From IMG/VR virus record IMGVR_UViG_3300009376_000001: 64,000 nt of DNA; one strand, written 5' to 3'. This DNA comes from a virus. Both the position numbers and the translations under genes were made by a program. Positions 3,302-62,631 of this stretch are shown piece after piece. The notes beneath the pieces are model-generated. The model worked only from the letters and a program-made list of their open reading frames with translations, ran no database searches and was not told the DNA's origin. The first letter of the stretch is position 1. Each line of letters opens with the position of its first letter.

Positions 3302-3994
3302 TTAGATGCCTCTTATAAAATAATTTTGCTCACACGTAGCTTTATAATTACACCAATCATGTTTCCATTCCGGTTGATATGGAAAATGTTCATCACGTGC
3401 TAGATAATCTTGTACTTGTCTGAACTTCTCTAATGTAGTTTCAATGATAGAATCATTACGTTCTGTTTCACAGATAATATATTGTTGATTATTTTTATTG
3501 ATATAAAAAATAATTCCTTCATCTAAGCCAGTCATTAAGGAATATAGATTCCATTGAATCAAATGCTCATGTCTAGGCAGATATTGAGCATACTTAGGAT
3601 TCTTAGGCTCCGCCATACTTTTAAGTTCTAATAAAATCTCTTTGTCATCTGTAGGACGCTTAATAATAGCATCATAAAATCCACGTATGGGCGGGTCATC
3701 ATAGGTAACTTCTTGTTCGGAGGACACCATCAATCCAGTTTCAATCAACTTCTTCTCAATAAATTCATGAAACACTGTCCCAATGCCCATACGACGAAGA
3801 CTTTGAGAAGCAATAGGGTCTTGCTCCTGCCCCAACATATAATAATATAAAGCTCGTGGACATAGATGAGCTTGTGACGGACTGAAAGAAGTCCGTTTAT
3901 ATGATGCTCGTTGTTGAGTTAAATCATAAGTATCAAAAGCTGATTCTATCCAGTGTTTTTCTCTGTCTTTTATTACTTGACTAAGTTTAGGCAT
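3302..3994 (-). CDS. Cas4-like PD-(D/E)XK exonuclease
   Basis: FSPS..LCPR.LYY, GTVFHE, GFYD, ELKS, Q..LY and C-terminal WC.YKATC. Confidence 0.8.
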   Translation of the reverse strand: MPKLSQVIKDREKHWIESAFDTYDLTQQRASYKRTSFSPSQAHLCPRALYYYMLGQEQDPIASQSLRRMGIGTVFHEFIEKKLIETGLMVSSEQEVTYDDPPIRGFYDAIIKRPTDDKEILLELKSMAEPKNPKYAQYLPRHEHLIQWNLYSLMTGLDEGIIFYINKNNQQYIICETERNDSIIETTLEKFRQVQDYLARDEHFPYQPEWKHDWCNYKATCEQNYFIRGI

Positions 3995-12304: not shown

Positions 12305-15300
12305 CTACGGATGATTAATATGATTTTGACTGAAGTGGGTGTTCAATCCTGTAGTGTTCTTACCTGAATTAAAGACTACCATATACATCACACCACCTCC
12401 AATATTTTCCCAATTTCCGCCAGAAGTAGGGTCAATGTACTGACCAGTAGCGGTAACATGTGTATGTTTTAACGGTAACATAAGACCCGCAGTTCCGGCA
12501 CTGCTAACATTTACTGGAATAGTAAATGTCGTACTACTTGTCACAGTAATCTTATGCAATCCATCAATACTAGGACTGGAATTACTACCACCAATCCATA
12601 CAGCTTCATTACTACTGCGGTCATGGTCAAACGTAGTAGTAATTACCGTAGGATTCGCTGCGGAATTACTACTGATAGTGTAGTAACTATTGTAACCATC
12701 AGATGCACTATTCCAAGTTTGTTTTGCATTACGTGTTATTCGGACTTGCATCTGGACATTCGTATATTTACCACCACTTGTAGTCCATCGATATGGGTTG
12801 ATTATAGCTCCAGTATAGCTATTAGGAGTACTTTGACCAGCTACTTCCTCATGTCCACACCACGAAGTAAATACTAATGGTGCCGAATCCAACTCAGGCA
12901 AAACTATATTGAATCTGCCACTACTGTCCATCTGAGTAACATCTACAAACCCAGTAAACCCAGTCATAACCTCTGCATTTATCTTAGGAGTGTCAGTATT
13001 CCACTCATCATAAGTAGTCCCGCTATTAAAGATGTCTCTGTGAGCTATATATAATCCTGAACCTTCTGTAACTGTCCCTGAATTACGTAAATATAAAGTC
13101 GCTTCATCTGTACCAGGGTGAAAATCAGGAGTACCGCTACCTCGCTTATCTCTAGCGATAAATGTTAATCCTGCGCCTCCTTGAGCCACCCCGTCTTCTT
13201 CTGGATTGATACCTAAATGATCTATACGCATCAAATCCGTATCAAGTGTCTCTCTAGTATTATGATTAACGTATAATTTCCTAGTCCAGCGAAATTCATT
13301 CTGATAATTAGCTACGGAACTGCCTCCCTGAGGCATAATGCCTAATTCAGTGCCTAAAGGTGCATACTCTTCTCTACCTACAAACCTACCTGGCCCCTGT
13401 GGCATATAATCTAAGCCGTCTACTACCGCCTTATCGAGAGGTTGGAAGACGGCATTAGCAGTTTCCCGTGTCCGACTGACTAAGTCTCGCATAAGACGAC
13501 GTTCTGCCGACCCAGGTTCAGAGACAGAGGTCATATCTCTGAATAGAATAAGCTCACATCGCCACATTGAAGCTTCCGAATAAGAGCAAGATATGGAGTA
13601 AACTAGCCAAGCCTCATTATCAATAATGGGATCTAATCCAGTTATTTCGACATTAACTCGATCTCCGGCTCGCACCATCCTAGGACGCTTTAGATGTGAA
13701 TACATAGGAGGATATTGAATAGTAATCTTACATTCCCTAAAAAAGGCATTATTTTCAGGCTGTAATTGTGCCAAAAGAGAACGTGCTCTAGTTTCGCACT
13801 GTACCGAAGTAGTCAATGAAGAATCATCTACTACCCGCTCTTTAACTAATCCATAAGCATCAATACTAGTAGTATCTTCAGCTACTCCATATGCCCCACT
13901 ACGTCCACGTACACTTACTTTATTAACAAAATCTACAGGTTTTTCATTTAAAGCATATTCTGATATTGGGATAACTTGTTCTGTTTGTTGTTGATTATCC
14001 GATAAAGTAAGACCATATGTAATAGGTGTCGAATGCCTAACAGTGCCTACTTCCATGCCAGGATGCCAAAAATTCGGCCCGACCCATCCCTGTGAAATCT
14101 TGGCAGCAGATGTAGCAGGACTAGAAACATTACTACCTAGTCTAGCTCGTATATAATACGCCGTTTTGCCGAAACTTTGGTCAGTTGCATTAGCTTCTTT
14201 AATACCTGGCTGACAAGTCTTCCAATTATGAGGCTTATCAAAGGTCACTTCATAAGTACCACTAGCGGTAAAATCCCCAGTTTCATCAAATGAATTGAAA
14301 GTAGTCCAGTTATCAGTACCTTCACCAGCAAAATACTCATAAGTAATACCGGAATATCCAGCAGAGGACGAACTAAGAACGTCAGTAATGTTTAAACGTA
14401 TGGCAGAAAAGGGTTCATCCATGCCAAAGTAGATTGCATCGCCTATTTGCCCATTATCGACAGCATACACTTTTTCAGGAACAACAGTGCCAGCAGTTCC
14501 GGCAGTAGTTACATTCACTGGAACCGAAAAAGTAGAATCGGTTAAAACAGTTACCGTTCTTGTGCCGTCTATTACTGGAGTAGAGTTAGAACTAGCAATA
14601 ACTACCTTATGTCCTGTAGTTAAACCATGAGGGAGCAATTTAGCCACCGTTCCGGCAGTTCCTGCAGTAGTTACTCGTACAGAAATACTAAAAGTAGTAG
14701 TACTTAATACAGTAACCATCCAATGGTCCGAAATACTTGGAATTGAATTACTGTCCTCAATAATTACAATATCGCCAGTAGTTAAATTATGCGCTGCTGA
14801 AGTAGTAATTACCGTTTCTGTGGCAGCCGTGTTACTGCTAATAGTTAAGCTCGGACCAGTAGTAGTGACAACAGTAGGATTGGCAACAGTATTGCCTGTA
14901 ATACGTAAAGTAGTTCCAGAGGTCGATGAGCTAATCTCCTGACTATAATCCGTAAATTTAGAACCCGCACTAGCTGATGTATCATATCGATAACAATATT
15001 GCATGTCCCTTGTGGCAGTAGTTCCTTGAACAGTGGTATTAGCGTTATATACCCACGGTTCCTTGCCTCTATCAAAATATTTAAGCATACCTACCGGAGA
15101 AGTTTGTACGTCACGAAGATCTGCAACATTAGTAGGAGTACCGGAGATATAACAACGTACCCAAAAAAGAACTCTACTGCTAGGAGGAGTAGTAAATGCT
15201 GTAATAGTAGACGTATTACCCGCAGTTGTTACGTTTACAGGGATGCTAAAAGTAGTGGCAGACACCCTAGTAATAGTATGTACACCATCAATAGACGGAG

Positions 15301-17548
15301 TAGAGTTAGACCCTCTAATAAAAATTTTATCTCCTGTCTTTAAATTATGATTTTCAGTACTCCCACCTGCACCATCTGCAGAAGTGATAATAGTAGGATT
15401 AGCTTGAGTAATACTATTAGTACCCTTGCCTTGAAGGTATTTCAAAAATTTAGCAGAACGTCCAGATACCATCCCACTATAGGGATAATCATCTAGCATA
15501 TGGGATTTATCAAATTCGTCTAACTGAACGTCATGGTTAAACGTAGTAGTAGCCGAATCCATGAAAGTATCTGTATCCCAACGAACATCTGCATAATATT
15601 CTTGAAGAAGTCCAGATGCGCCAATATCTTTCTGCCATCCAGCATTGCCAGTACCGCTTAAACCTTGAGATGCAGTAATACGACTATTACATACGACATG
15701 TCCTGCCGTGCCTGCGGTAGTGACATTTACTGCAACGGAAAAAGTAGTAGCACTAATCCGTGTAACCGTATGAGTACCATTAATCGATGGAGTAGAGTTA
15801 GAACCAGAAATAGTAACAGAGTCGCCTGTATCTAAATTATGACGTTCTGTAGTAATGACCGTAGGATTCGCTAATGTATTACTAGAAATGGTCAATCCAG
15901 AAATAGTTTGCCACGGTTCGTTATCCGCTGCAGCACGGTATGCGTCATAATATTGCCATACAACATTTACATTTGAATAATTAGGAACATTTTGCTGTAC
16001 GGCATGGAACTGTACACCATTAAACGGATATTCCGATCCAAAATACCAAGTACTATTCGCATTCCCTAAAAATTTAGTAACTACACTATTAGAATTCCAT
16101 AATGCTCTATTACCTGTACCAGCATTGCCTCCATCCATATTAAGAGCAGTCCAGGTGCCTCCTGGCCCATCTCGACCCGTTGTCCATCCACTTCCAGCAG
16201 TATTATGTGTATATCTCCAGACTTCGGAGAAGAATTCCGGATCGTCGCACCTAATATCATGAAATAAATCAGGTTTAGTATATAATTCTACTGTCTGAAC
16301 TCGTGCAAATGTAGAGTTATTAACAGTACGAACATAGGTACGCACCCAATACCTATTGGTATTACGTCTATCATCGCCATGATCTACCTTAGAGATAGCA
16401 GCACTATTCACATCTTCAACTAAGGTAGTCCCAGAACTAGCCCACGGGGCTGCCCAGTTCTCTGTAGCATCATTAGCCGTATGCATATCCGGCGTAGTGC
16501 CTAAATCCCTTTTGCCCCAATTAGTTAAATTACTAATAGTCCAGTATGTAGAACCATAAGTCTTACCACTATCTAAACCAAACTCAGAATCTGCAGTAGG
16601 TGTAAAATTAGTCCAAGCAGTGCCATTCCAATACTGCCACTGCACAGTTTGAGTCTGATTAGATGCCTGAATAGTATTACCACGAGTTAAAAGTGTATAT
16701 CTTATCCCATCAAACTTAGTATTAGAGCCAAAATATAAGATATCCGTAGTTTCAGGCGTATCCGTATCTTGATATCCAGTTGGACTTACGAAGTGACTAG
16801 ACCCATCTACCACACGACGAGTTAAATCCGTCCAATAAGTACGAGGATATCGTTCAGGGTCTGAAGTATGGTTAGCATGTGAAGGGTCAGTAGGGTCAGG
16901 ATGGTAATAAAAGACCATTAAATCTTGCTGAGGGTCTTCACTAGCTAGATCATGTATCGCTTCCAGTCCTGTTTTAACGCCTCTATAGGAAAAATCATCA
17001 GGAGTATCCGAAGAAACTGTCCTATAGTTGCCTTTTTGGCTGTAATTACGAGAAATAAGTTCACTATAGGCCGACGGATCCATCTTTAACCGTCGAAGTA
17101 AAGTGCGTTCTAAATCTCCACCCGTAGTAGGCTTATAAGTATCATTTTCTAAGATCCTATTAGCTATAAAACTACGAGTAGCAGCAGTTATAGTGCCATT
17201 TGTCTCAACCGCTTCCACGGTACGGTCTGCAATATCGTCTAAAAAGTCTCTACAAGTAAGAACTAGGGTCTGCCTATGAAAATCTTCCTCAATACTGACT
17301 ACTCGCCCTAAAAATGCCACCACACCGTAGTCTTCTAATAAACGAACACGAGTCATTGGTTGATACCAACCTACACGTGACCCCTTAAGATTAGAAACTG
17401 TGACTCTTAGAACTCGACTACGATTACCGATACTATCTATTAAAGAATAATCTTTAAAATTCTTTTCAGTAATCCATTGTTCTTGTTTAGTACGGTCTAA
17501 TTTAACAGACGTAGAAAATTGAAAATTAGTACTAAGAATTGTAGGCAT
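12305..17548 (-). CDS. Large tail-tip/baseplate hub-like protein with repeated beta domains
   Basis: 1747 aa after tape measure and distal-tail-like genes; hub-like F.GRV and SI..YG..E motifs; five E1-FCCH-like repeats; three YFG..F...W.Y..W...Y.VR repeats. Confidence 0.7.
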   Translation of the reverse strand: MPTILSTNFQFSTSVKLDRTKQEQWITEKNFKDYSLIDSIGNRSRVLRVTVSNLKGSRVGWYQPMTRVRLLEDYGVVAFLGRVVSIEEDFHRQTLVLTCRDFLDDIADRTVEAVETNGTITAATRSFIANRILENDTYKPTTGGDLERTLLRRLKMDPSAYSELISRNYSQKGNYRTVSSDTPDDFSYRGVKTGLEAIHDLASEDPQQDLMVFYYHPDPTDPSHANHTSDPERYPRTYWTDLTRRVVDGSSHFVSPTGYQDTDTPETTDILYFGSNTKFDGIRYTLLTRGNTIQASNQTQTVQWQYWNGTAWTNFTPTADSEFGLDSGKTYGSTYWTISNLTNWGKRDLGTTPDMHTANDATENWAAPWASSGTTLVEDVNSAAISKVDHGDDRRNTNRYWVRTYVRTVNNSTFARVQTVELYTKPDLFHDIRCDDPEFFSEVWRYTHNTAGSGWTTGRDGPGGTWTALNMDGGNAGTGNRALWNSNSVVTKFLGNANSTWYFGSEYPFNGVQFHAVQQNVPNYSNVNVVWQYYDAYRAAADNEPWQTISGLTISSNTLANPTVITTERHNLDTGDSVTISGSNSTPSINGTHTVTRISATTFSVAVNVTTAGTAGHVVCNSRITASQGLSGTGNAGWQKDIGASGLLQEYYADVRWDTDTFMDSATTTFNHDVQLDEFDKSHMLDDYPYSGMVSGRSAKFLKYLQGKGTNSITQANPTIITSADGAGGSTENHNLKTGDKIFIRGSNSTPSIDGVHTITRVSATTFSIPVNVTTAGNTSTITAFTTPPSSRVLFWVRCYISGTPTNVADLRDVQTSPVGMLKYFDRGKEPWVYNANTTVQGTTATRDMQYCYRYDTSASAGSKFTDYSQEISSSTSGTTLRITGNTVANPTVVTTTGPSLTISSNTAATETVITTSAAHNLTTGDIVIIEDSNSIPSISDHWMVTVLSTTTFSISVRVTTAGTAGTVAKLLPHGLTTGHKVVIASSNSTPVIDGTRTVTVLTDSTFSVPVNVTTAGTAGTVVPEKVYAVDNGQIGDAIYFGMDEPFSAIRLNITDVLSSSSAGYSGITYEYFAGEGTDNWTTFNSFDETGDFTASGTYEVTFDKPHNWKTCQPGIKEANATDQSFGKTAYYIRARLGSNVSSPATSAAKISQGWVGPNFWHPGMEVGTVRHSTPITYGLTLSDNQQQTEQVIPISEYALNEKPVDFVNKVSVRGRSGAYGVAEDTTSIDAYGLVKERVVDDSSLTTSVQCETRARSLLAQLQPENNAFFRECKITIQYPPMYSHLKRPRMVRAGDRVNVEITGLDPIIDNEAWLVYSISCSYSEASMWRCELILFRDMTSVSEPGSAERRLMRDLVSRTRETANAVFQPLDKAVVDGLDYMPQGPGRFVGREEYAPLGTELGIMPQGGSSVANYQNEFRWTRKLYVNHNTRETLDTDLMRIDHLGINPEEDGVAQGGAGLTFIARDKRGSGTPDFHPGTDEATLYLRNSGTVTEGSGLYIAHRDIFNSGTTYDEWNTDTPKINAEVMTGFTGFVDVTQMDSSGRFNIVLPELDSAPLVFTSWCGHEEVAGQSTPNSYTGAIINPYRWTTSGGKYTNVQMQVRITRNAKQTWNSASDGYNSYYTISSNSAANPTVITTTFDHDRSSNEAVWIGGSNSSPSIDGLHKITVTSSTTFTIPVNVSSAGTAGLMLPLKHTHVTATGQYIDPTSGGNWENIGGGVMYMVVFNSGKNTTGLNTHFSQNHINHP

Positions 17549-54269: not shown

Positions 54270-55574
54270 TTAGGCGTTCAGGTCAGTAATCTTGGCGTGT
54301 GCGTCCAAACGCAAGGATCGTAGTTCACCGATGGTGTAGAACAATCCACGAAGGACGAATGCGTTTGCCTGGAAGAAGTCTCGGTTGTCGATATACTGCG
54401 TAGGAGCAGCAATAGCGAGTTCCAAGTACCGTGTATCCATGACATAGACATTGCTACCAAGGTTAGCATCTGCAGCCGTGAACGAACCCTGAACATCAGG
54501 ATCGACAATGACTGGGATACCCCTATAAGTAGCCACCTGGAAGCCAGCGTGGGAACCTGGAAGAGTGGATTCGTCGCCGACTTTGACAACAAATTCGCCC
54601 CAGTCCAGATAACGTTGCTGAGCTTGCAACAGGGAAGATAGACGGTCAAACTGGTCATAACCCATCAGAATTACGTCAGGGTCAGCACCGTTTACACGAA
54701 CTTCACGAATGGCCTGGTCTAGCAGGGCCAACGTGAGGTTACGCCCAGTACCACTATTACCAAGAACGGTAGCAGCAGCATTGTGCGCTCCAGCAGCACG
54801 AGTAGTTTGGTTATATACGTCTACGCCGTTAGTAACAGTCACGCCAGCTACGACACGAGCATCTTGTTCGACGATGTCGTCAAGAGAAGTGAAGCCAGCA
54901 CGGCTCTTTACATAAACAATCTCACCGTCAGTCAAGTTTCCGCCACCTGTCCAAGTAGCGTCACTCTGAGCGTCAAGACCGCTATAAGTAAGAGCAGTAT
55001 CACCGATGGTGGTTCCACCGAAAGTGTCACCAACACGGAGAGTGTTACCAGCGGAGATTATTTCACCAGTACCAGAGGCACCAGCAGTCGAGGCGATGGT
55101 CATCGAGCGAAGCAGGAGTTCCTGGTTCAACTCTTTTATGTGGTCCCTAGCAGCAGCTTCTTGCTCAACTGCCAGGTTGTCCCCCATACCACCTTCCAGA
55201 CCGCTCATGATCTGGGACTTGAGTGAGACACCGAAGTCAGTAGCTACGATACGAGGAGCAGAGTCCACGTTGACGTAATTGCTGACATCGACAGTGGGAA
55301 GCGCACCAGTTTCAGTTACGGGACGGGAACGGCTATCGCCCCTATCTGACCGCAAACGCCAACCAGTGGTGGGTCCCCATTGTACTTTCCGAAGAATGTT
55401 CCAAAATCGTGTCTGGTTGTTCAATGCGTCCCAGACTTTACGTCCGTAAGTTGCAGTGAACACATCTGATACCTGAAGGTACGTTTGCTTAGCAAAGTAA
55501 CCAGGTGGCATCAGTGAGCTACGCAGATTTCGCTCCGCAGAAGATATATACTGCGCTATGCTTAGATCAGCCAT
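54270..55574 (-). CDS. Major capsid protein (HK97 fold)
   Basis: Protease-scaffold-MCP order; YG.KVW..LN, E.G.LP, PDVILM, VATYRGIP and GEL motifs; high-expression codon bias. Confidence 0.85.
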   Translation of the reverse strand: MADLSIAQYISSAERNLRSSLMPPGYFAKQTYLQVSDVFTATYGRKVWDALNNQTRFWNILRKVQWGPTTGWRLRSDRGDSRSRPVTETGALPTVDVSNYVNVDSAPRIVATDFGVSLKSQIMSGLEGGMGDNLAVEQEAAARDHIKELNQELLLRSMTIASTAGASGTGEIISAGNTLRVGDTFGGTTIGDTALTYSGLDAQSDATWTGGGNLTDGEIVYVKSRAGFTSLDDIVEQDARVVAGVTVTNGVDVYNQTTRAAGAHNAAATVLGNSGTGRNLTLALLDQAIREVRVNGADPDVILMGYDQFDRLSSLLQAQQRYLDWGEFVVKVGDESTLPGSHAGFQVATYRGIPVIVDPDVQGSFTAADANLGSNVYVMDTRYLELAIAAPTQYIDNRDFFQANAFVLRGLFYTIGELRSLRLDAHAKITDLNA

Positions 55575-56680: not shown

Positions 56681-59593
56681 TTATCTAGGTCGTAAACTTG
56701 AATCAAACTCTAATTCTTTAATGTTATAACATTCTGGACAAATCATAGGATCTGGTTTTTGTATGATATCTGTAATATATGATTTAGGATTCATTGGAGT
56801 AACACACAACGTTACTTCATAAATCTCCAAATCAGTTACTTCCGTCCAACATTTACCATGTTCACAAATAGTTTTCTTATCTTTTGCATTACCTGCAATA
56901 GAAAATCCTCGCATTCCGCCTTTTAAGACCTCAGCCATAGCTTTTCTAGAAACTTCTAAATCAGTTCTAAACGCTGCAACCACAAACAGTCCTTCAGGTC
57001 GAACCTCGGTTTTCCATTCTTTCCCCGTGGCATCTACAAATCTACGTAGAATTTGACCAACCTGGATGCCCGAATGGAAAATGTTCATATTGGCAAATTC
57101 TTTTTTACCTAAGAATTTATTCATAGCCCGTCGCATGCCATCCAAACCAATACGATGACCTTCACGGTCTACAATATAATAATTACCCCATCCAGCAACC
57201 ACTAAAGTACGACCTGTATCCATTTTTTGAATGGAATTCTCAGTTAATACTTTAAACGCTTCATGCTCTCCCAAAGATTCTGGCGTATCACCCTTACCTA
57301 ACACATAGCTACCTAAATCTTGAGACAATAACGCCAAATTGGTGTATTGTTCCGCTGCATTATCATTAATACTGCGTAATCGATGGTCTTCATCTATAAA
57401 TTGTCTAGTAGCTCGTTCATGTTCTGGTTTCTGAGATATTGCCGTAGGAGCATATGCTTCTTCATCGTCAGCAATCACATAACTACTAGCTTGATCTAGT
57501 CCAATAGGCTGCTGTTCTTTCGGAATTTGATGTTCCTGATCTGAAGCTCTTTGCTCCGCATCATCATCTTCGGAATCTCCAGGCTTATGTCGCTCTACAG
57601 AACGAGGAGGACGAGTATTATCATCAGATGGATATGGAAGTTGAGATACACCTTCATAAGATCCAGCATCCATTGAGTCTTTCAATTGTAAAGCTGAATT
57701 ATATTTACGTTCTCGTCCAGTACGTCCACCATGTGTAGCGGTATGAGTTGCATCTCCTCCGCTTCCTCCAGTGGACATAGCAGTACCTCCACTAAATCCT
57801 CCACCGCCTCCGTCGCCTCCAGCACCTCCGCCTCCACCTGCGCCACCTCCGCCCCCACCTTCTTTCAAAACAGGAGTACGATTAATAGGCTTTAAATTAG
57901 AATCATAATCAGATTCTAAATCGGTATCTGTAGCATCAGCAGGAGCAATCATGGTAACACTGCCATCACCTCCGCCTTCAACCCCCTCTCCGCCCGTACC
58001 ACCAGAAGCTTTCGTATTTACATCTACTCCATCAGTTTCTTCAGGAGAAATATCTATAACAGCACCAGATGAAAAAGCTTGTGTTCCTGTACCAGTTTCT
58101 GCACTGGAAAGAGCTTCTCGTCCATCCTCATCAGGATCAATAGGCTTTTGAGCATCCCTTTCATTATTAGCATATGCCTTCATAGCTAAGGAGGATTTTT
58201 TATTTTCCTCCTCTTCTTTTATCCGACGATAATGCTGAGAAGAAGCCATTGTTCCGTCATTTAAAGCTTCAGGATCGTCTACGCCTAATCCACCTTCATT
58301 AGATTGCTTTTGTATAGGCTTAGAAGGAACCCGACCTTCATCTATATCTGAATATTCCAGATTTTTAAAGTTATCATGTTGAGCTTTAATACGACTCGGA
58401 ACGGTAGCAGTGCCTAATTGATTAGGTTTACGGTCATTTTTATTTGATTGCTGGATGCCCTGATCATCATCTCCTGTGCTGAAAGAAGAAGTTGCTCCCT
58501 CAACAACATTACCAACTGCACTGCCAATACCTGATGCAACAGCCCCGACTCCACGAGCTACTCCTCCAGCAATTGCACCCAAAGCAGGAAGAATCTTTTC
58601 TATTTCTTGTCCACGGACCTGATGAAGCTTATCTTGCCCCTCTACATCATCGCCTTCTTTAAGCTTTACTTTATTAGGAGTAAATACATCCCCAACAGAA
58701 CTAAAAGGATCTCCTAAATCAGAAACATCTCGCTGTTTACTAAAAGCGAACCATTCTCCATCTTGTTGAGTTAATCTAATCTCAACTCCGCCAGCATCAG
58801 CATTCTTAACTAAGAAAGCAAAACCTTCTTCCGCATCATTAGGAATATATTCCCGCATGATAACGTTAGGTTTCTTTTCATCAGTTTTATAATTAGCAGG
58901 ACTCTCTAAATCTTCGTCACTGGTATAGATAAGGTCACGTACATCTTTTTGTACGCCCTCTATTTCTTCTTCTTTATGTTCTCCGGCTTCCCACGGCTGT
59001 TCAGAAACTTCTGCCCATTTTTCGTTCCTCTCAGCCATAGGTACAGGCTTAAAAAGATCACAATACATCTCTTCTTTGACAGGAAGGTCTATCTTTGTAC
59101 AATATCCGCCTGCAGCAAAAAAGATACAGGTATGACATTCTTCAGCTTCTTTCTCAGAAGGACGATAATTAATAAAATCTAAAACGTCTAAATTACTACG
59201 ATTATGTTTAATTAGGTTGAGAAAACTCTCTTCAGAAAATTCTTTAACTAATTCAATACCATCTAAAGACGAAGCTAAATGATCATGTCCTATAGCTGCT
59301 AGCATATCCCTAACATGGTCATTACGTGCCTGAAGAATTTCCCTTAACGCAGCAAAAGAAGGATCAGAACCTTTCTCTTCATCGTCATGAATCTGAGCAA
59401 CTTGATTATAAAATACAGAAGCTGCTTTCTCCCCATCAGGACCAGCATAAAGATTATTTCCGTCTAGACGCACAAAAAACACATCATTATGATGTGCTAA
59501 TTCCACAGCATGGGATTGATCTTGATAAAGACTGAGGATATCAATATCCTCTAATTCTTTTATTAATGCATCTAAAGCGTTTAAGTCAGTCAT
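56681..59593 (-). CDS. Prohead protease (HK97/S78-like) with ~790-aa N-terminal extension
   Basis: C-terminal VAGW..VDREGH.I, N..H...QVG, GFSIAG and EVTL...P.NP catalytic motifs. Confidence 0.85.
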   Translation of the reverse strand: MTDLNALDALIKELEDIDILSLYQDQSHAVELAHHNDVFFVRLDGNNLYAGPDGEKAASVFYNQVAQIHDDEEKGSDPSFAALREILQARNDHVRDMLAAIGHDHLASSLDGIELVKEFSEESFLNLIKHNRSNLDVLDFINYRPSEKEAEECHTCIFFAAGGYCTKIDLPVKEEMYCDLFKPVPMAERNEKWAEVSEQPWEAGEHKEEEIEGVQKDVRDLIYTSDEDLESPANYKTDEKKPNVIMREYIPNDAEEGFAFLVKNADAGGVEIRLTQQDGEWFAFSKQRDVSDLGDPFSSVGDVFTPNKVKLKEGDDVEGQDKLHQVRGQEIEKILPALGAIAGGVARGVGAVASGIGSAVGNVVEGATSSFSTGDDDQGIQQSNKNDRKPNQLGTATVPSRIKAQHDNFKNLEYSDIDEGRVPSKPIQKQSNEGGLGVDDPEALNDGTMASSQHYRRIKEEEENKKSSLAMKAYANNERDAQKPIDPDEDGREALSSAETGTGTQAFSSGAVIDISPEETDGVDVNTKASGGTGGEGVEGGGDGSVTMIAPADATDTDLESDYDSNLKPINRTPVLKEGGGGGGAGGGGGAGGDGGGGGFSGGTAMSTGGSGGDATHTATHGGRTGRERKYNSALQLKDSMDAGSYEGVSQLPYPSDDNTRPPRSVERHKPGDSEDDDAEQRASDQEHQIPKEQQPIGLDQASSYVIADDEEAYAPTAISQKPEHERATRQFIDEDHRLRSINDNAAEQYTNLALLSQDLGSYVLGKGDTPESLGEHEAFKVLTENSIQKMDTGRTLVVAGWGNYYIVDREGHRIGLDGMRRAMNKFLGKKEFANMNIFHSGIQVGQILRRFVDATGKEWKTEVRPEGLFVVAAFRTDLEVSRKAMAEVLKGGMRGFSIAGNAKDKKTICEHGKCWTEVTDLEIYEVTLCVTPMNPKSYITDIIQKPDPMICPECYNIKELEFDSSLRPR

Positions 59594-59602
59594 TAACTAA
59601 AG

Positions 59603-60790
59603 TCATCCTATACTTGGTTGGATGGCACGTTGTGTGGGAGCCGATGGACTAGAACCCCCAAATAGCGGAGCATGACGTGCGCCTGTCTCTCTCATTGCGG
59701 TAGCTTCATTTACATTACCAGGAAGAGCACGTGATCCTCCGCCTGGAGTCATAGCATAGACCTGCTCGCCTCCCGTCTGCTTCTCTATTCCCTCTTGTTC
59801 AGGAGACTCCTGAACATTATGAGAGGGTCATTTATCGCAGTCTTCGTCTTCAGGACCTGTCTCCAGACCATCGGCAGACATGCCCAAACCATCTATGGCG
59901 GAGCCTCCACTACTATTAGGCATCATTTCCAAATCTTGAGAGACAGCGTTAGCTTTTTCCACCGACAAAAAATCAGATAATTCAAAAACATCTGGCTCAT
60001 AGTATAGGAAGGCGGATAAAAAGGCAGGTTCGTTCACTGTATCTATACTTTTCGCTATATTCATACTAGATTCCCACCAATCTTTAGTAGGACGTGTCGA
60101 TCGATTTGTTAGCATCTGATGAACTATTGTTCCTTCGACCAAATCTTCTGCATTAATACTTTCATCTAAATCAAATGATTTTAAAATACTAATATCATCA
60201 ACTAAAGCAGTATCGCCATCCTGTTTAGGCAATACACGATCCACGGAACCCCAAATTTTCAGAATATCAATAGATTTAGCATGAGTACGGACTACAGAAC
60301 TCACAAAATCATTTGATTTTGTAACATCATTCGTCTCATCTTCGTCATCTTCAGTAGTAGCGTATCGATTTAAAAAGGGTTCAGCAATACTGGATTCAGA
60401 ATTTTCCTGCTCATGTCTCTCTAAGTTAGTATTCTGATCATATTCCCCTTTTTCTACATCATCACCTTGAATCTTTGAAGATATTTTATCTCCAATAGCT
60501 TCTCCAATAGCAGGAGCAGCTGCTCTAGCTACTGTACCCATTAAGCCAGATTTCTCTACTTCGTTTTCAGACTGATAAGGATCATCCCCGTTAGTACTAT
60601 CCACATTTACATGCACAGACGGAGCTTTAGCAGGCTGGTGGTCTGACGTATGCCAGTGCATAACATCAGGACACCAATGGTCAGCCTCAGGCAATTCATC
60701 TTCGGTCTTCTGCAAATGCGAAGACTCAATAGAATCAATCATTAAATGTAGGCCATTTACGAAATCTAAATCAGCTTGGGACTGCGTCAT
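59603..60790 (-). CDS. Putative head internal protein; candidate selenoprotein (in-frame TGA at 59828-59830, CDK-U); 320 aa if TGA terminates, 395 aa if read through
   Basis: Frame open for 74 codons past TGA, ending 9 nt before the protease ATG; SECIS-like hairpin; the extension carries the family GIEK motif. Confidence 0.65.
59790..59827 (-). promoter_or_regulatory. Bacterial SECIS-like hairpin 1
   Basis: UGA-CCCUCU-CAUAA-UGUUCAGGA-GUC-UCCUGAACA-AGAGGG. Confidence 0.65.
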
Positions 60791-61537: not shown

Positions 61538-61675
61538 TTACGGCTCTATAGGAGCTATTTTCTCTATTTGGTTTGGACACCAACGAGCAGGCTCAAAATT
61601 AGGTTCCGGATCCGGCTGAATCCGTGGATTCGTCTTTGGTACTACTGTCGGTTTCGTCTTCGGTGATGTTGGCAT
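61538..61675 (-). CDS. 45-aa proline-rich protein (not in the ORF track)
   Basis: MPTSPKTKPTVVPKTNPRIQPDPEPNFEPARWCPNQIEKIAPIEP; AAGGAG RBS; stop abuts the next ATG. Confidence 0.65.
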   Translation of the reverse strand: MPTSPKTKPTVVPKTNPRIQPDPEPNFEPARWCPNQIEKIAPIEP

Positions 61676-62051
61676 CTATCTCTATCTCCTTAGCAAGGAA
61701 TTTATATAGTTTTAATTTTAAATCGTATCCCGCATCTGATCCTGTTCCCCAACGAAAAGTCGTAGGAACAATAGCTAACAGTGTTCTTGCTAAAAATTCA
61801 TCAATGGGCAAAGACTCAGTAAGTGAAGAAATCTGAGTAGGTTGCCCTTTCTTTTGTCTAGTTAAAGAACTAATTCCTCTCCAAACATCATATCTAAAAG
61901 ATGACCAATTGGTGACTAAATCTTCTAGAGGAGCATTCGGTATTAGTCCTGAGCCAGAACACATAACCCAATCCAAAAGAAGAAGCTCTTCTTCTGTAAC
62001 CGTAATGTTTTCTACAACTGGAAGTTCCCAGCCGTCATCCCCTAGTACCAT
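61599..62051 (-). CDS. Hypothetical protein
   Basis: 150 aa with GAGG RBS; acidic tail overlaps the proline-rich ORF. Confidence 0.6.
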   Translation of the reverse strand: MVLGDDGWELPVVENITVTEEELLLLDWVMCSGSGLIPNAPLEDLVTNWSSFRYDVWRGISSLTRQKKGQPTQISSLTESLPIDEFLARTLLAIVPTTFRWGTGSDAGYDLKLKLYKFLAKEIEIDANITEDETDSSTKDESTDSAGSGT

Positions 62052-62055
62052 ATAC

Positions 62056-62088
62056 TACCTCGCATGCCTACGGCAGCTAAATACCGCC
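62056..62088 (-). promoter_or_regulatory. Bacterial SECIS-like hairpin 2
   Basis: UGA-GGCGG-UAUUU-A-GCUGCC-GUA-GGCA(U)GC-G-AGGUA. Confidence 0.5.
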
Positions 62089-62631
62089 TCAAGCAGCTTC
62101 TAAATGACTTGGATCGCCTTTTTTATGCTTACATTTAGCACGAGATTGTTTATCCAAATATCTATTAATTAACGTAACAGGGTCAGCAGATCGATTAAAA
62201 CCGCCTTCCTGTGGGCCATAGGTCGCAAATGAAGCAGCAGATGGACCCGTACTGCCTCCCCCTGATCCCGGCTGTGAGGTAGCATGGATACCCATTGAGC
62301 CGCCACCAGGAGCACTACCCCAATTAGTAGTAGGAGCCTGATATACAGTACCAGAACGTCCAATAGTGCCTGAAGCTCCTACTGCCCCACACATATTCTG
62401 AGTACACGCTTTGCCTATTTCAGAGCCTTTTTCATGCCCACAAGGAAAAGTATGTTCATGTTTTTCTACATAACCATCGATAGCTTTCTTAATTAATGAA
62501 ACTATCATAGATTTAGACGCAAAATCACTAAGCTTGTCTTCACTCATGCTAGTTTTAGTCTTCTTACCAGCACGAGCACGAGCAAGCTCAGCACCCATAA
62601 ATCGACGTTGTTTCTCTGATTTAGCTGGCAT
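62077..62631 (-). CDS. DUF3008-like head-cluster protein; candidate selenoprotein (TGA at 62089-62091, ends ...AA-U-GGI)
   Basis: N-terminal MPAKSEKQRRFMGA...MSE..L.DFA; TGA aligns with Cys of an internal CxHxKG repeat; 180 aa if TGA terminates. Confidence 0.6.

Follow-up and report, generated by a model that had tools for sequence, protein, structure and literature searches.

A candidate selenocysteine codon near the C-terminus of a head-operon protein of an uncultured marine bacteriophage

The UGA at positions 62089-62091 (minus strand), located in a small gene of the head-assembly operon of an uncultured marine bacteriophage, is probably a selenocysteine (Sec) codon, and the gene would thus encode a phage selenoprotein produced by a SelB-type mechanism. 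The UGA is conserved among the relatives of the gene, it is followed by a coding signature, it is equivalent to a cysteine, and a hairpin with a covarying stem is found at a nearly constant distance downstream. The dependence on SelB, the selenium content and the function of the protein are predictions made from sequence comparison. An earlier note on this DNA had proposed the Sec interpretation from the window alone, the window being the whole stretch of 64,000 nucleotides that was analysed; it is the comparison with relatives, and not the window by itself, that supports it.

The gene, its product and its phage context

The gene is located among the conserved small genes upstream of the protease gene. 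With the UGA read through, its coding sequence spans 62080..62631 (minus strand) and specifies 184 residues, according to the ORF and its translation, 79 homologues and alignments; up to the TGA, it covers 62089-62631 (minus strand) and 180 amino acids. In the window, the gene terminates as ...KCKHKKGDPSHLEAA-UGA-GGC-GGU-AUU-UAG or, in a second rendering, ...YLDKQSRAKCKHKKGDPSHLEAA-TGA-GGC-GGT-ATT-TAG. The proposed Sec codon (62089..62091, minus strand), a conserved TGA aligned with Cys, corresponds to residue 181. It is followed by the read-through tail Gly-Gly-Ile (62080..62088, minus strand), whose Gly codons +1 and +2 have their counterpart in the C-G-G of Cys homologues, and by the true stop UAG (62077..62079, minus strand), which is also the base of the hairpin. 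A spacer of 37 nt, its end fixed by the ATG at 62049-62051, leads to a conserved downstream gene of 150 amino acids (61599..62051, minus strand; MVLGDDGWELP...), the GAGG Shine-Dalgarno of which (62058..62061, minus strand) lies directly 3' of the hairpin core.

From the N- to the C-terminus, the protein is formed by a basic DUF3008-like helix, a first module, a Gly/Ser-rich disordered linker and a second module harboring the UGA. Module 1 (62389..62481, minus strand; residues 51-81), the internal Cys-containing copy, exhibits the motif I-D-x-Y-[LV]-x-K ... P-C-G-H ... K-A-C-x4-C. Module 2 (62080..62172, minus strand; residues 154-184) reads LINRYLDKQSRAKCKHKKGDPSHLEAA-U-GGI, with the arrangement C167-x13-U181; the residues C, H, D-P, H, E and U are invariant in this module. 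The AlphaFold2 model (mean pLDDT 50.7, pTM 0.18), too poor for fold searches, displays helices at residues 6-20, 31-37, 40-58 and 151-167 and is otherwise disordered. Searches of Pfam (at E <= 0.01), NCBIfam and PHROGs returned no family for the candidate protein or its neighbours. In language-model and structure look-ups, the N-terminal ~45 residues (MPAKSEKQRRFMGAEL...) are similar to DUF3008 (PF11450), a family of small basic proteins of bacteria and phages; this similarity is an atlas lead only (score 0.79; 25% of the members of the cluster carry the family), and the DUF3008 Pfam model yields no match to the N-terminal part at E <= 0.01. DUF3008 proteins are without known function and, unlike the candidate protein, without a Cys/Sec module.

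The two ends of the protein are also encountered separately. The motif MPAKSEKQRRFMGAEL.R.RAGKKT.TGMSE, which covers residues 1-45 in the window (62497-62631, minus strand), opens genes in 125 viral-contig stretches, the C-terminal parts of which are otherwise unrelated. The C-terminal module is free-standing in several relatives, as an ORF of 36-39 called codons (40-43 with U-G-G-I) that starts M-D-T-N-N-L-V-K-L-I... in a different frame after the N-terminal gene, with a TAATG overlap; since it occurs as a separate ORF, the module is the conserved unit. Such arrangements were observed at L123:3408-3527, L088, L095, L103 and L124:3869-3988, and the free-standing Cys-x13-UGA ORF is a candidate selenopeptide or frameshifting site.

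The window exhibits dense genes on a single strand (minus) and a G+C content of 40.5%. Its head module comprises the major capsid protein (54270-55574, minus strand) and a prohead-protease domain (within 56681-59593, minus strand), and the window also encodes tail genes and a ribonucleotide reductase. The replication genes, namely RecA (E = 7.8e-56), a family A DNA polymerase (PolA), a DnaB-like helicase and a DnaG-type primase, are of bacterial type, which argues for a bacterial host. Among 50,697 isolated phage records, the capsid protein and the prohead protease match only haloarchaeal tailed viruses (HVTV-1, HCTV-1/5), at ~26-31% identity. To our knowledge, Archaea do not use SelB-type bacterial SECIS elements, and this resemblance to haloarchaeal viruses would therefore count against the Sec reading. 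No close cultured relative was found via the capsid protein, the protease or PolA, and blastn and tblastn of the gene against isolated phages gave no match. A peptide-pattern scan of 185,579 species genomes identified no prophage copy (14 matches, all to unrelated proteins), and a tRNA scan of the window and of 13 related loci detected no tRNA gene. The same strand encodes, at 12305-17548, a 1747-residue protein, of which residues 563-609 match the FCCH domain of the ubiquitin-activating enzyme E1 (PF16190, E = 2.4e-13).

An invariant UGA, its equivalence with cysteine and the codons that follow

A protein search provided 79 relatives, all metagenomic, and nearly all the full-length homologues end exactly with ...KC[GK]HKKGDP[NS]HLEAA. 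The codon that comes next was assessed by an unbiased DNA search of marine metagenomes and IMG/VR, using the back-translated KKGDPxHLEAA pattern with the next codon unconstrained, together with the loci of more distant called homologues. This codon is TGA in 29 of 29 homologous loci, a count that leaves out P0083, P0088 and P0089 (ending ...ESM, ...EFG and ...EAG), and in all 25 distinct 60-nt fragments; because these loci share a common ancestry, such counts do not represent independent events. TAA or TAG at this codon, the outcome that would have spoken for an ordinary stop, is absent from these loci and fragments. A viral-contig pattern for further ...HIE... variants had no match. In the same loci, the flanking genes stop at TAA (27), TAG (3) and TGA (2), and the 73 genes of the window at TAA (40), TAG (22) and TGA (11): elsewhere in the window, UGA is an ordinary minority stop codon.

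These stop codons also bear on the idea that UGA is a sense codon throughout the genome (Trp as in code 4, Gly as in code 25). Some uncultured lineages and their phages do use reassignments of the code 4/25 type. In the present case, only two in-frame TGAs in 64 kb are followed by conserved coding sequence, and ORFs of 1747, 970, 757 and 753 codons contain no TGA. The 11 genes of 73 that end in TGA do so at sensible boundaries. The use of TGA as a terminator together with its absence inside long ORFs excludes genome-wide reassignment, which was rejected from codon usage and is effectively refuted.

Within the protein, residues 54-76 (YVEKHEHTFPCGHEKGSEIGKAC) resemble residues 158-181. The two similar segments described in the earlier note are indeed present, and the repeat is confirmed independently, because a search of 1.84 billion representative proteins with a profile of the C-terminal module only gave two or three matching stretches per full-length homologue, module 1 among them. 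Most homologues have P-C-G-H-x11-C (C-x13-C) as their first copy and K-C-G-H-x11-TGA as their second, which places the UGA exactly at the second Cys. The 2-residue gap that the note introduced between the copies exists in the window, where the first copy is C-x11-C and the second C-x13-UGA, but it is needless in most homologues.

Relatives with a cysteine at the aligned position provide a second comparison: four related modules in three loci possess TGT or TGC there. In L134, the gene order of which is that of the window, the syntenic positional orthologue P0091 reads ...PCGHHVDDPNYVEAA-C-ATGGC..., with the codon TGT, and its ORF continues for ~70 codons. In L133, P0090 reads ...KKGDPDHIEAG-C-KQ... 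and the next ORF ...HIEAQNS-C-GG-D...; in L138, P0080 reads ...HLEAQAD-C-GG-E..., with the codon TGC. Besides the Cys/UGA column, the joint alignment is invariant only at I, K and the first Cys. The alignment of Cys with TGA, which had been suggested as a check, is thus found in the orthologues of L134, L133 and L138 as well as in the internal repeat. L134 has Cys at the candidate site, yet it keeps the sibling UGA described below, a combination that is the usual pattern of exchange between a putative Sec and Cys.

Might the UGA be decoded without selenocysteine? In a programmed read-through of this kind, a leaky UGA would be read by a near-cognate tRNA (Trp/Cys), with the hairpin as stimulator, giving a minor product four residues longer. 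A conserved UGA, a coding signature and a hairpin would be expected here too, and phage Q-beta, which makes its A1 protein by UGA read-through, offers a precedent, A1 being likewise the product of a structural-module gene whose UGA stop is read through. Q-beta, however, relies on leaky read-through by tRNA-Trp, which works without a SECIS-like hairpin and appends a long domain, whereas the extension of the candidate is of 3 residues and its codon is equivalent to Cys. Moreover, homologues have Cys in the UGA column, and the distance between the two Cys of the internal copy recurs exactly, which suggests that each molecule requires a Cys-like residue there; and if Cys sufficed, TGY should often replace TGA, yet TGA is found in 29 of 29 loci. 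Sec-independent read-through is therefore an unlikely explanation.

The Sec reading further implies coding sequence beyond the UGA. In the 25 fragments, codon +1 is always Gly (GGC 4, GGA 2, GGG 15, GGT 4), codon +2 is GGN in 20, AGY in 4 and AAC in 1, codon +3 is mostly ATT or ATG, and codon +4 is TAA in 17, TAG in 7 and GAA in 1. The short tail read as U-G-G-I in the window is kept as G-[GS]-[IMFT] in 24 of the 25. All four synonymous codons are used at the two Gly positions; for the 15 codons upstream of the UGA, synonymous codons differ in 27% of pairwise comparisons. The first stop, TGA in 25/25, is thus fixed, whereas the second, TAA or TAG, is free to drift. Gly-Gly also follows directly after the Cys in two of the four Cys modules and, this being undoubted coding sequence, the GGN-GGN beyond the UGA is best taken as protein-coding too. 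Because the tail has three codons and AUU-UAA is shared with the stem, two codons and the Cys-Gly-Gly homologues provide most of the coding signal. Coding thus appears to continue past the UGA, with a modest signal and a short tail, and it is very likely that the UGA is translated. Longer tails were also encountered: in L137, 28 codons follow the UGA. In L128 (1572-1595), the stop after the 3-residue tail is lost, and the frame reads U-G-N-S-E-L-L and ends at a UAA overlapping the hairpin loop (G-UAA).

These codons can be set against a further possibility, i.e. that the UGA is a true stop and that the G-rich stretch and the hairpin are RNA signals acting in mRNA stability, processing or the control of downstream translation. 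A true stop offers no reason for TGA in 29 of 29 loci while the neighbours prefer TAA, nor for a GGN-GGN that varies at its wobble positions only, nor for the Cys-Gly-Gly that the Cys homologues carry as protein. The points in its favor come from the hairpin and are considered with it below; on balance, a true stop appears quite improbable.

The downstream hairpin and a sibling UGA

The SECIS-like hairpin, assessed through its energies and its covariation, has the core GCUGCC-GUA-GGCA(U)GC at 62062-62077 (minus strand), with the loop GUA at 62069-62071; an optional lower helix, UAUUU/AGGUA, extends it over 62056-62083. It is located where it had first been placed: counting from the UGA, the core begins at the 12th nt and the loop at a distance of 17 nt. 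In the window, the core is composed of four pairs, a bulged U and two pairs, with an energy of -6.5 kcal/mol, or -8.0 kcal/mol with the lower helix. The 48 nt after the window UGA fold with z = -0.29 against shuffles, and a loosely SECIS-like hairpin follows 0.5-0.9% of all stop triplets on this strand. Alone, the window hairpin is no better than chance, and the case therefore has to be made by comparison.

This comparison covers 22 aligned loci. In their stems, 84.8% of the cells are paired, as against 22-50% when the 3' partner is slid by 1-3 columns. Compensatory changes are observed at three pairs (UA 11/CG 10; GC 11/AU 5/GU 5; CG 9/UA 9/UG 4), and the covariation score is reached by none of 500 shuffles. 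Covariation, another of the checks suggested at the outset, thus sustains the stem, the slid controls being far lower. When the 22 loci are folded freely, the spacing between UGA and loop is 17 nt in 18 and 18 nt in L118, and the window, L087 and L088 fold differently. L118, which belongs to the distant P0048 lineage, possesses an unrelated stem, UCUACC-GUU-GGUAGA, 18 nt after its TGA, and the tail Gly-Ser-Phe-stop. L137 exhibits a two-part stem-loop (-19 kcal/mol, z = -2.33) with the UGA itself within the lower helix.

According to the bSECIS model, the loop measures 3-9 nt and the stem 4-16 bp, the UGA-loop distance is 16-37 nt, the MFE is <= -7.5 kcal/mol, and the loop has a G at position 1 or 2, with G or U as the usual next nucleotide (PMC13188914). 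In the phage loci, the loop has 3 nt (6 nt in L137) and the stem 5-9 bp, the window having 4 bp, a bulged U and 2 bp. Of the 22 aligned loci, 21 have the loop GUA and one GUU, with G and U invariant, and L137 has CGGGUU; the distance from the UGA to the loop is 17 nt in all of the 22 except L118, where it is 18 nt, and again 17 nt for the apical loop of L137. The energies straddle the cut-off: most of the main clade falls between -7.4 and -8.5 kcal/mol, with L103 at -5.9, and the clade of the window between -2.8 and -7.1; the window hairpin reaches -7.5 only if its lower helix is counted. To the covariation at three pairs are added the features of a selenoprotein gene, i.e. a UGA at the same codon in homologues, Cys-aligned relatives and coding past the UGA.

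In most loci, the hairpin lies 0-10 nt before the downstream Shine-Dalgarno or start, and the lower helix of the window would cover GAGG, as expected if the UGA were a true stop followed by a signal for the next gene. Two other observations agree with a true stop. In the clade of the window only, the Gly codons GGYGGU can pair with the 5' arm RCYRCC to give a mutually exclusive alternative hairpin (window 62072-62088, minus strand; also L087, L088, L092, L097, L123, L129 and L130); this pairing is the minimum-energy fold of the window, and part of the post-UGA pattern may therefore be an RNA-level constraint in this clade. L134 displays, at 3323-3345, a weak hairpin that spans the UAA stop of the Cys-form orthologue; the loop is a GUA triloop, the 3' arm contains an AGGUG Shine-Dalgarno, and a UGA is missing from the position 17 nt upstream. 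This hairpin may have arisen by chance or persist as a relic. In L137, conversely, the next gene starts ~105 nt away from the UGA and the hairpin, at its 17-nt distance from the UGA, ends up ~70 nt before that start, and in L138, the Cys form, no hairpin precedes the same downstream gene. Because of these two loci, the hairpin is seen to travel with the UGA and not with the downstream RBS. This counters the possibility, named in the earlier note as one that would refute the Sec reading, of an RBS occluder conserved independently of the UGA spacing, and occlusion is ruled out as the sole role of the hairpin. A role as terminator was likewise rejected, there being no U-tract 3' of the hairpin and no terminator called on this strand. 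An Rfam search of 59-64 kb produced chance matches only.

The same operon contains a second recoded gene (59606..60790, minus strand), with a UGA at 59828-59830 after ...EDEDCDK, a GUC-triloop hairpin and a 74-codon extension. This sibling UGA is located 2.3 kb downstream of the candidate UGA, in keeping with the other Sec-codon candidate that had been announced within 3 kb. Eight loci retain it as C-x(1-2)-UGA, its extension encompasses 60-80 conserved codons (...NEATAMR...HAPLFG...), and its hairpins present GUC, GUU, GGA or GGU triloops on covarying stems, the one in the window reaching -20.9 kcal/mol (z = -3.32). Since a conserved UGA, an extension and a covarying hairpin are associated at this second site, translation past a hairpin-flanked UGA in these phages seems hard to doubt. 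The hairpin geometry and the G[U/G]N loop match a SelB-type element at two sites of one operon, which is a further argument against Sec-independent read-through.

Proposed mechanism, known systems and meaning

With the UGA read as Sec, the following scenario may be proposed. When the ribosome stands at the UGA, ~11 nt downstream would be inside it, and the hairpin starting from the true stop codon would stand exposed at the mRNA entrance, its G-U-N triloop beginning at a distance of 17 nt from the UGA. Host SelB carrying Sec-tRNA(Sec) would bind this hairpin in the way it binds the minimal fdhF SECIS of E. coli; Sec would be inserted, followed by Gly-Gly-Ile, and translation would stop at the UAG. 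With a tail of just three codons after the UGA, the base of the stem coincides with the true stop, and the element sits in the intergenic spacer. The SECIS would then be almost wholly outside the reading frame, within the 37-nt spacer, as a natural counterpart of an engineered 3'-UTR SECIS.

The product would be a largely disordered head-operon protein, in which a C-terminal module of ~35 residues (an amphipathic helix and K-C-x-H-x11-U-G-G) duplicates an internal Cys module. Cys167 and Sec181, between which His and Glu residues are conserved, could form a redox-active selenenylsulfide or a metal-binding pair on a flexible C-terminal tail. From the head-assembly operon and the disorder, we infer a capsid-internal or scaffold-like protein with a putative Cys...Sec redox or metal site.

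The prototype of the bacterial SelB-bound SECIS located directly after the UGA is that of E. coli fdhF. With bacterial selenoprotein genes of the fdhF type, the phage gene shares the in-frame UGA, the Cys homologues, the small G-U/G-G loop, the 5-9 bp stem and the 17-nt spacing; the lower helix of fdhF includes the UGA, as that of L137 does. The candidate differs from them in coming from a virus of bacteria, in its place within a head-assembly operon and in belonging to a new protein family with no match in Pfam, NCBIfam or PHROGs. Its putative Sec is four residues from the C-terminus and its SECIS in an intergenic spacer instead of the ORF; the loop is a triloop, and the hairpin of the window's clade is weaker than the -7.5 kcal/mol cut-off.

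We know of no natural, conserved phage example of a bacterial SECIS in a 3'-UTR. A man-made one exists: a 3'-UTR bacterial SECIS works for the C-terminal Sec of mammalian thioredoxin reductase in E. coli (PMC10778597). The engineered enzyme (...Gly-Cys-Sec-Gly-stop) likewise has a C-terminal Sec followed by Gly, with the stop and the SECIS stem after a short tail, and it demonstrates that a bacterial SECIS need not be translated (PMC10778597). The phage arrangement differs in being natural and conserved across diverged phages, and in the position of the partner Cys, adjacent to Sec in thioredoxin reductase but 13 residues away in the phage protein.

Cells and a few animal viruses are known to have selenoproteins. 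A literature search for a phage-encoded selenoprotein found none, and a 2026 review of the prokaryotic selenoproteome nowhere mentions phages or viruses (PMC13188914). If the Sec reading is true, gene callers truncate phage genes, all 79 database homologues being cut at or split around the codon. The reproduction of deep-ocean phages would be tied to the Sec machinery of the host and to the selenium supply, and the two Sec codons would be a host-range marker for this uncultured phage lineage. Nature would also place a bacterial SECIS outside the reading frame, which would be useful for engineering C-terminal Sec tags, and a new short Cys...Sec module would be available for biochemical characterisation.

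A wider and more speculative idea, put forward tentatively, is that marine phages may build selenium into their particles by means of two Cys-paired Sec proteins of the head operon. The phage would then possess a new redox or metal module of ~40 residues (C-x-H-x11-U-G-G), in some cases a selenopeptide on its own, that would be part of capsid-internal and possibly injected proteins, together with a natural 3'-UTR SECIS. If phage particles do carry selenium, phages would depend on, and mark, Sec-using hosts and the selenium supply.
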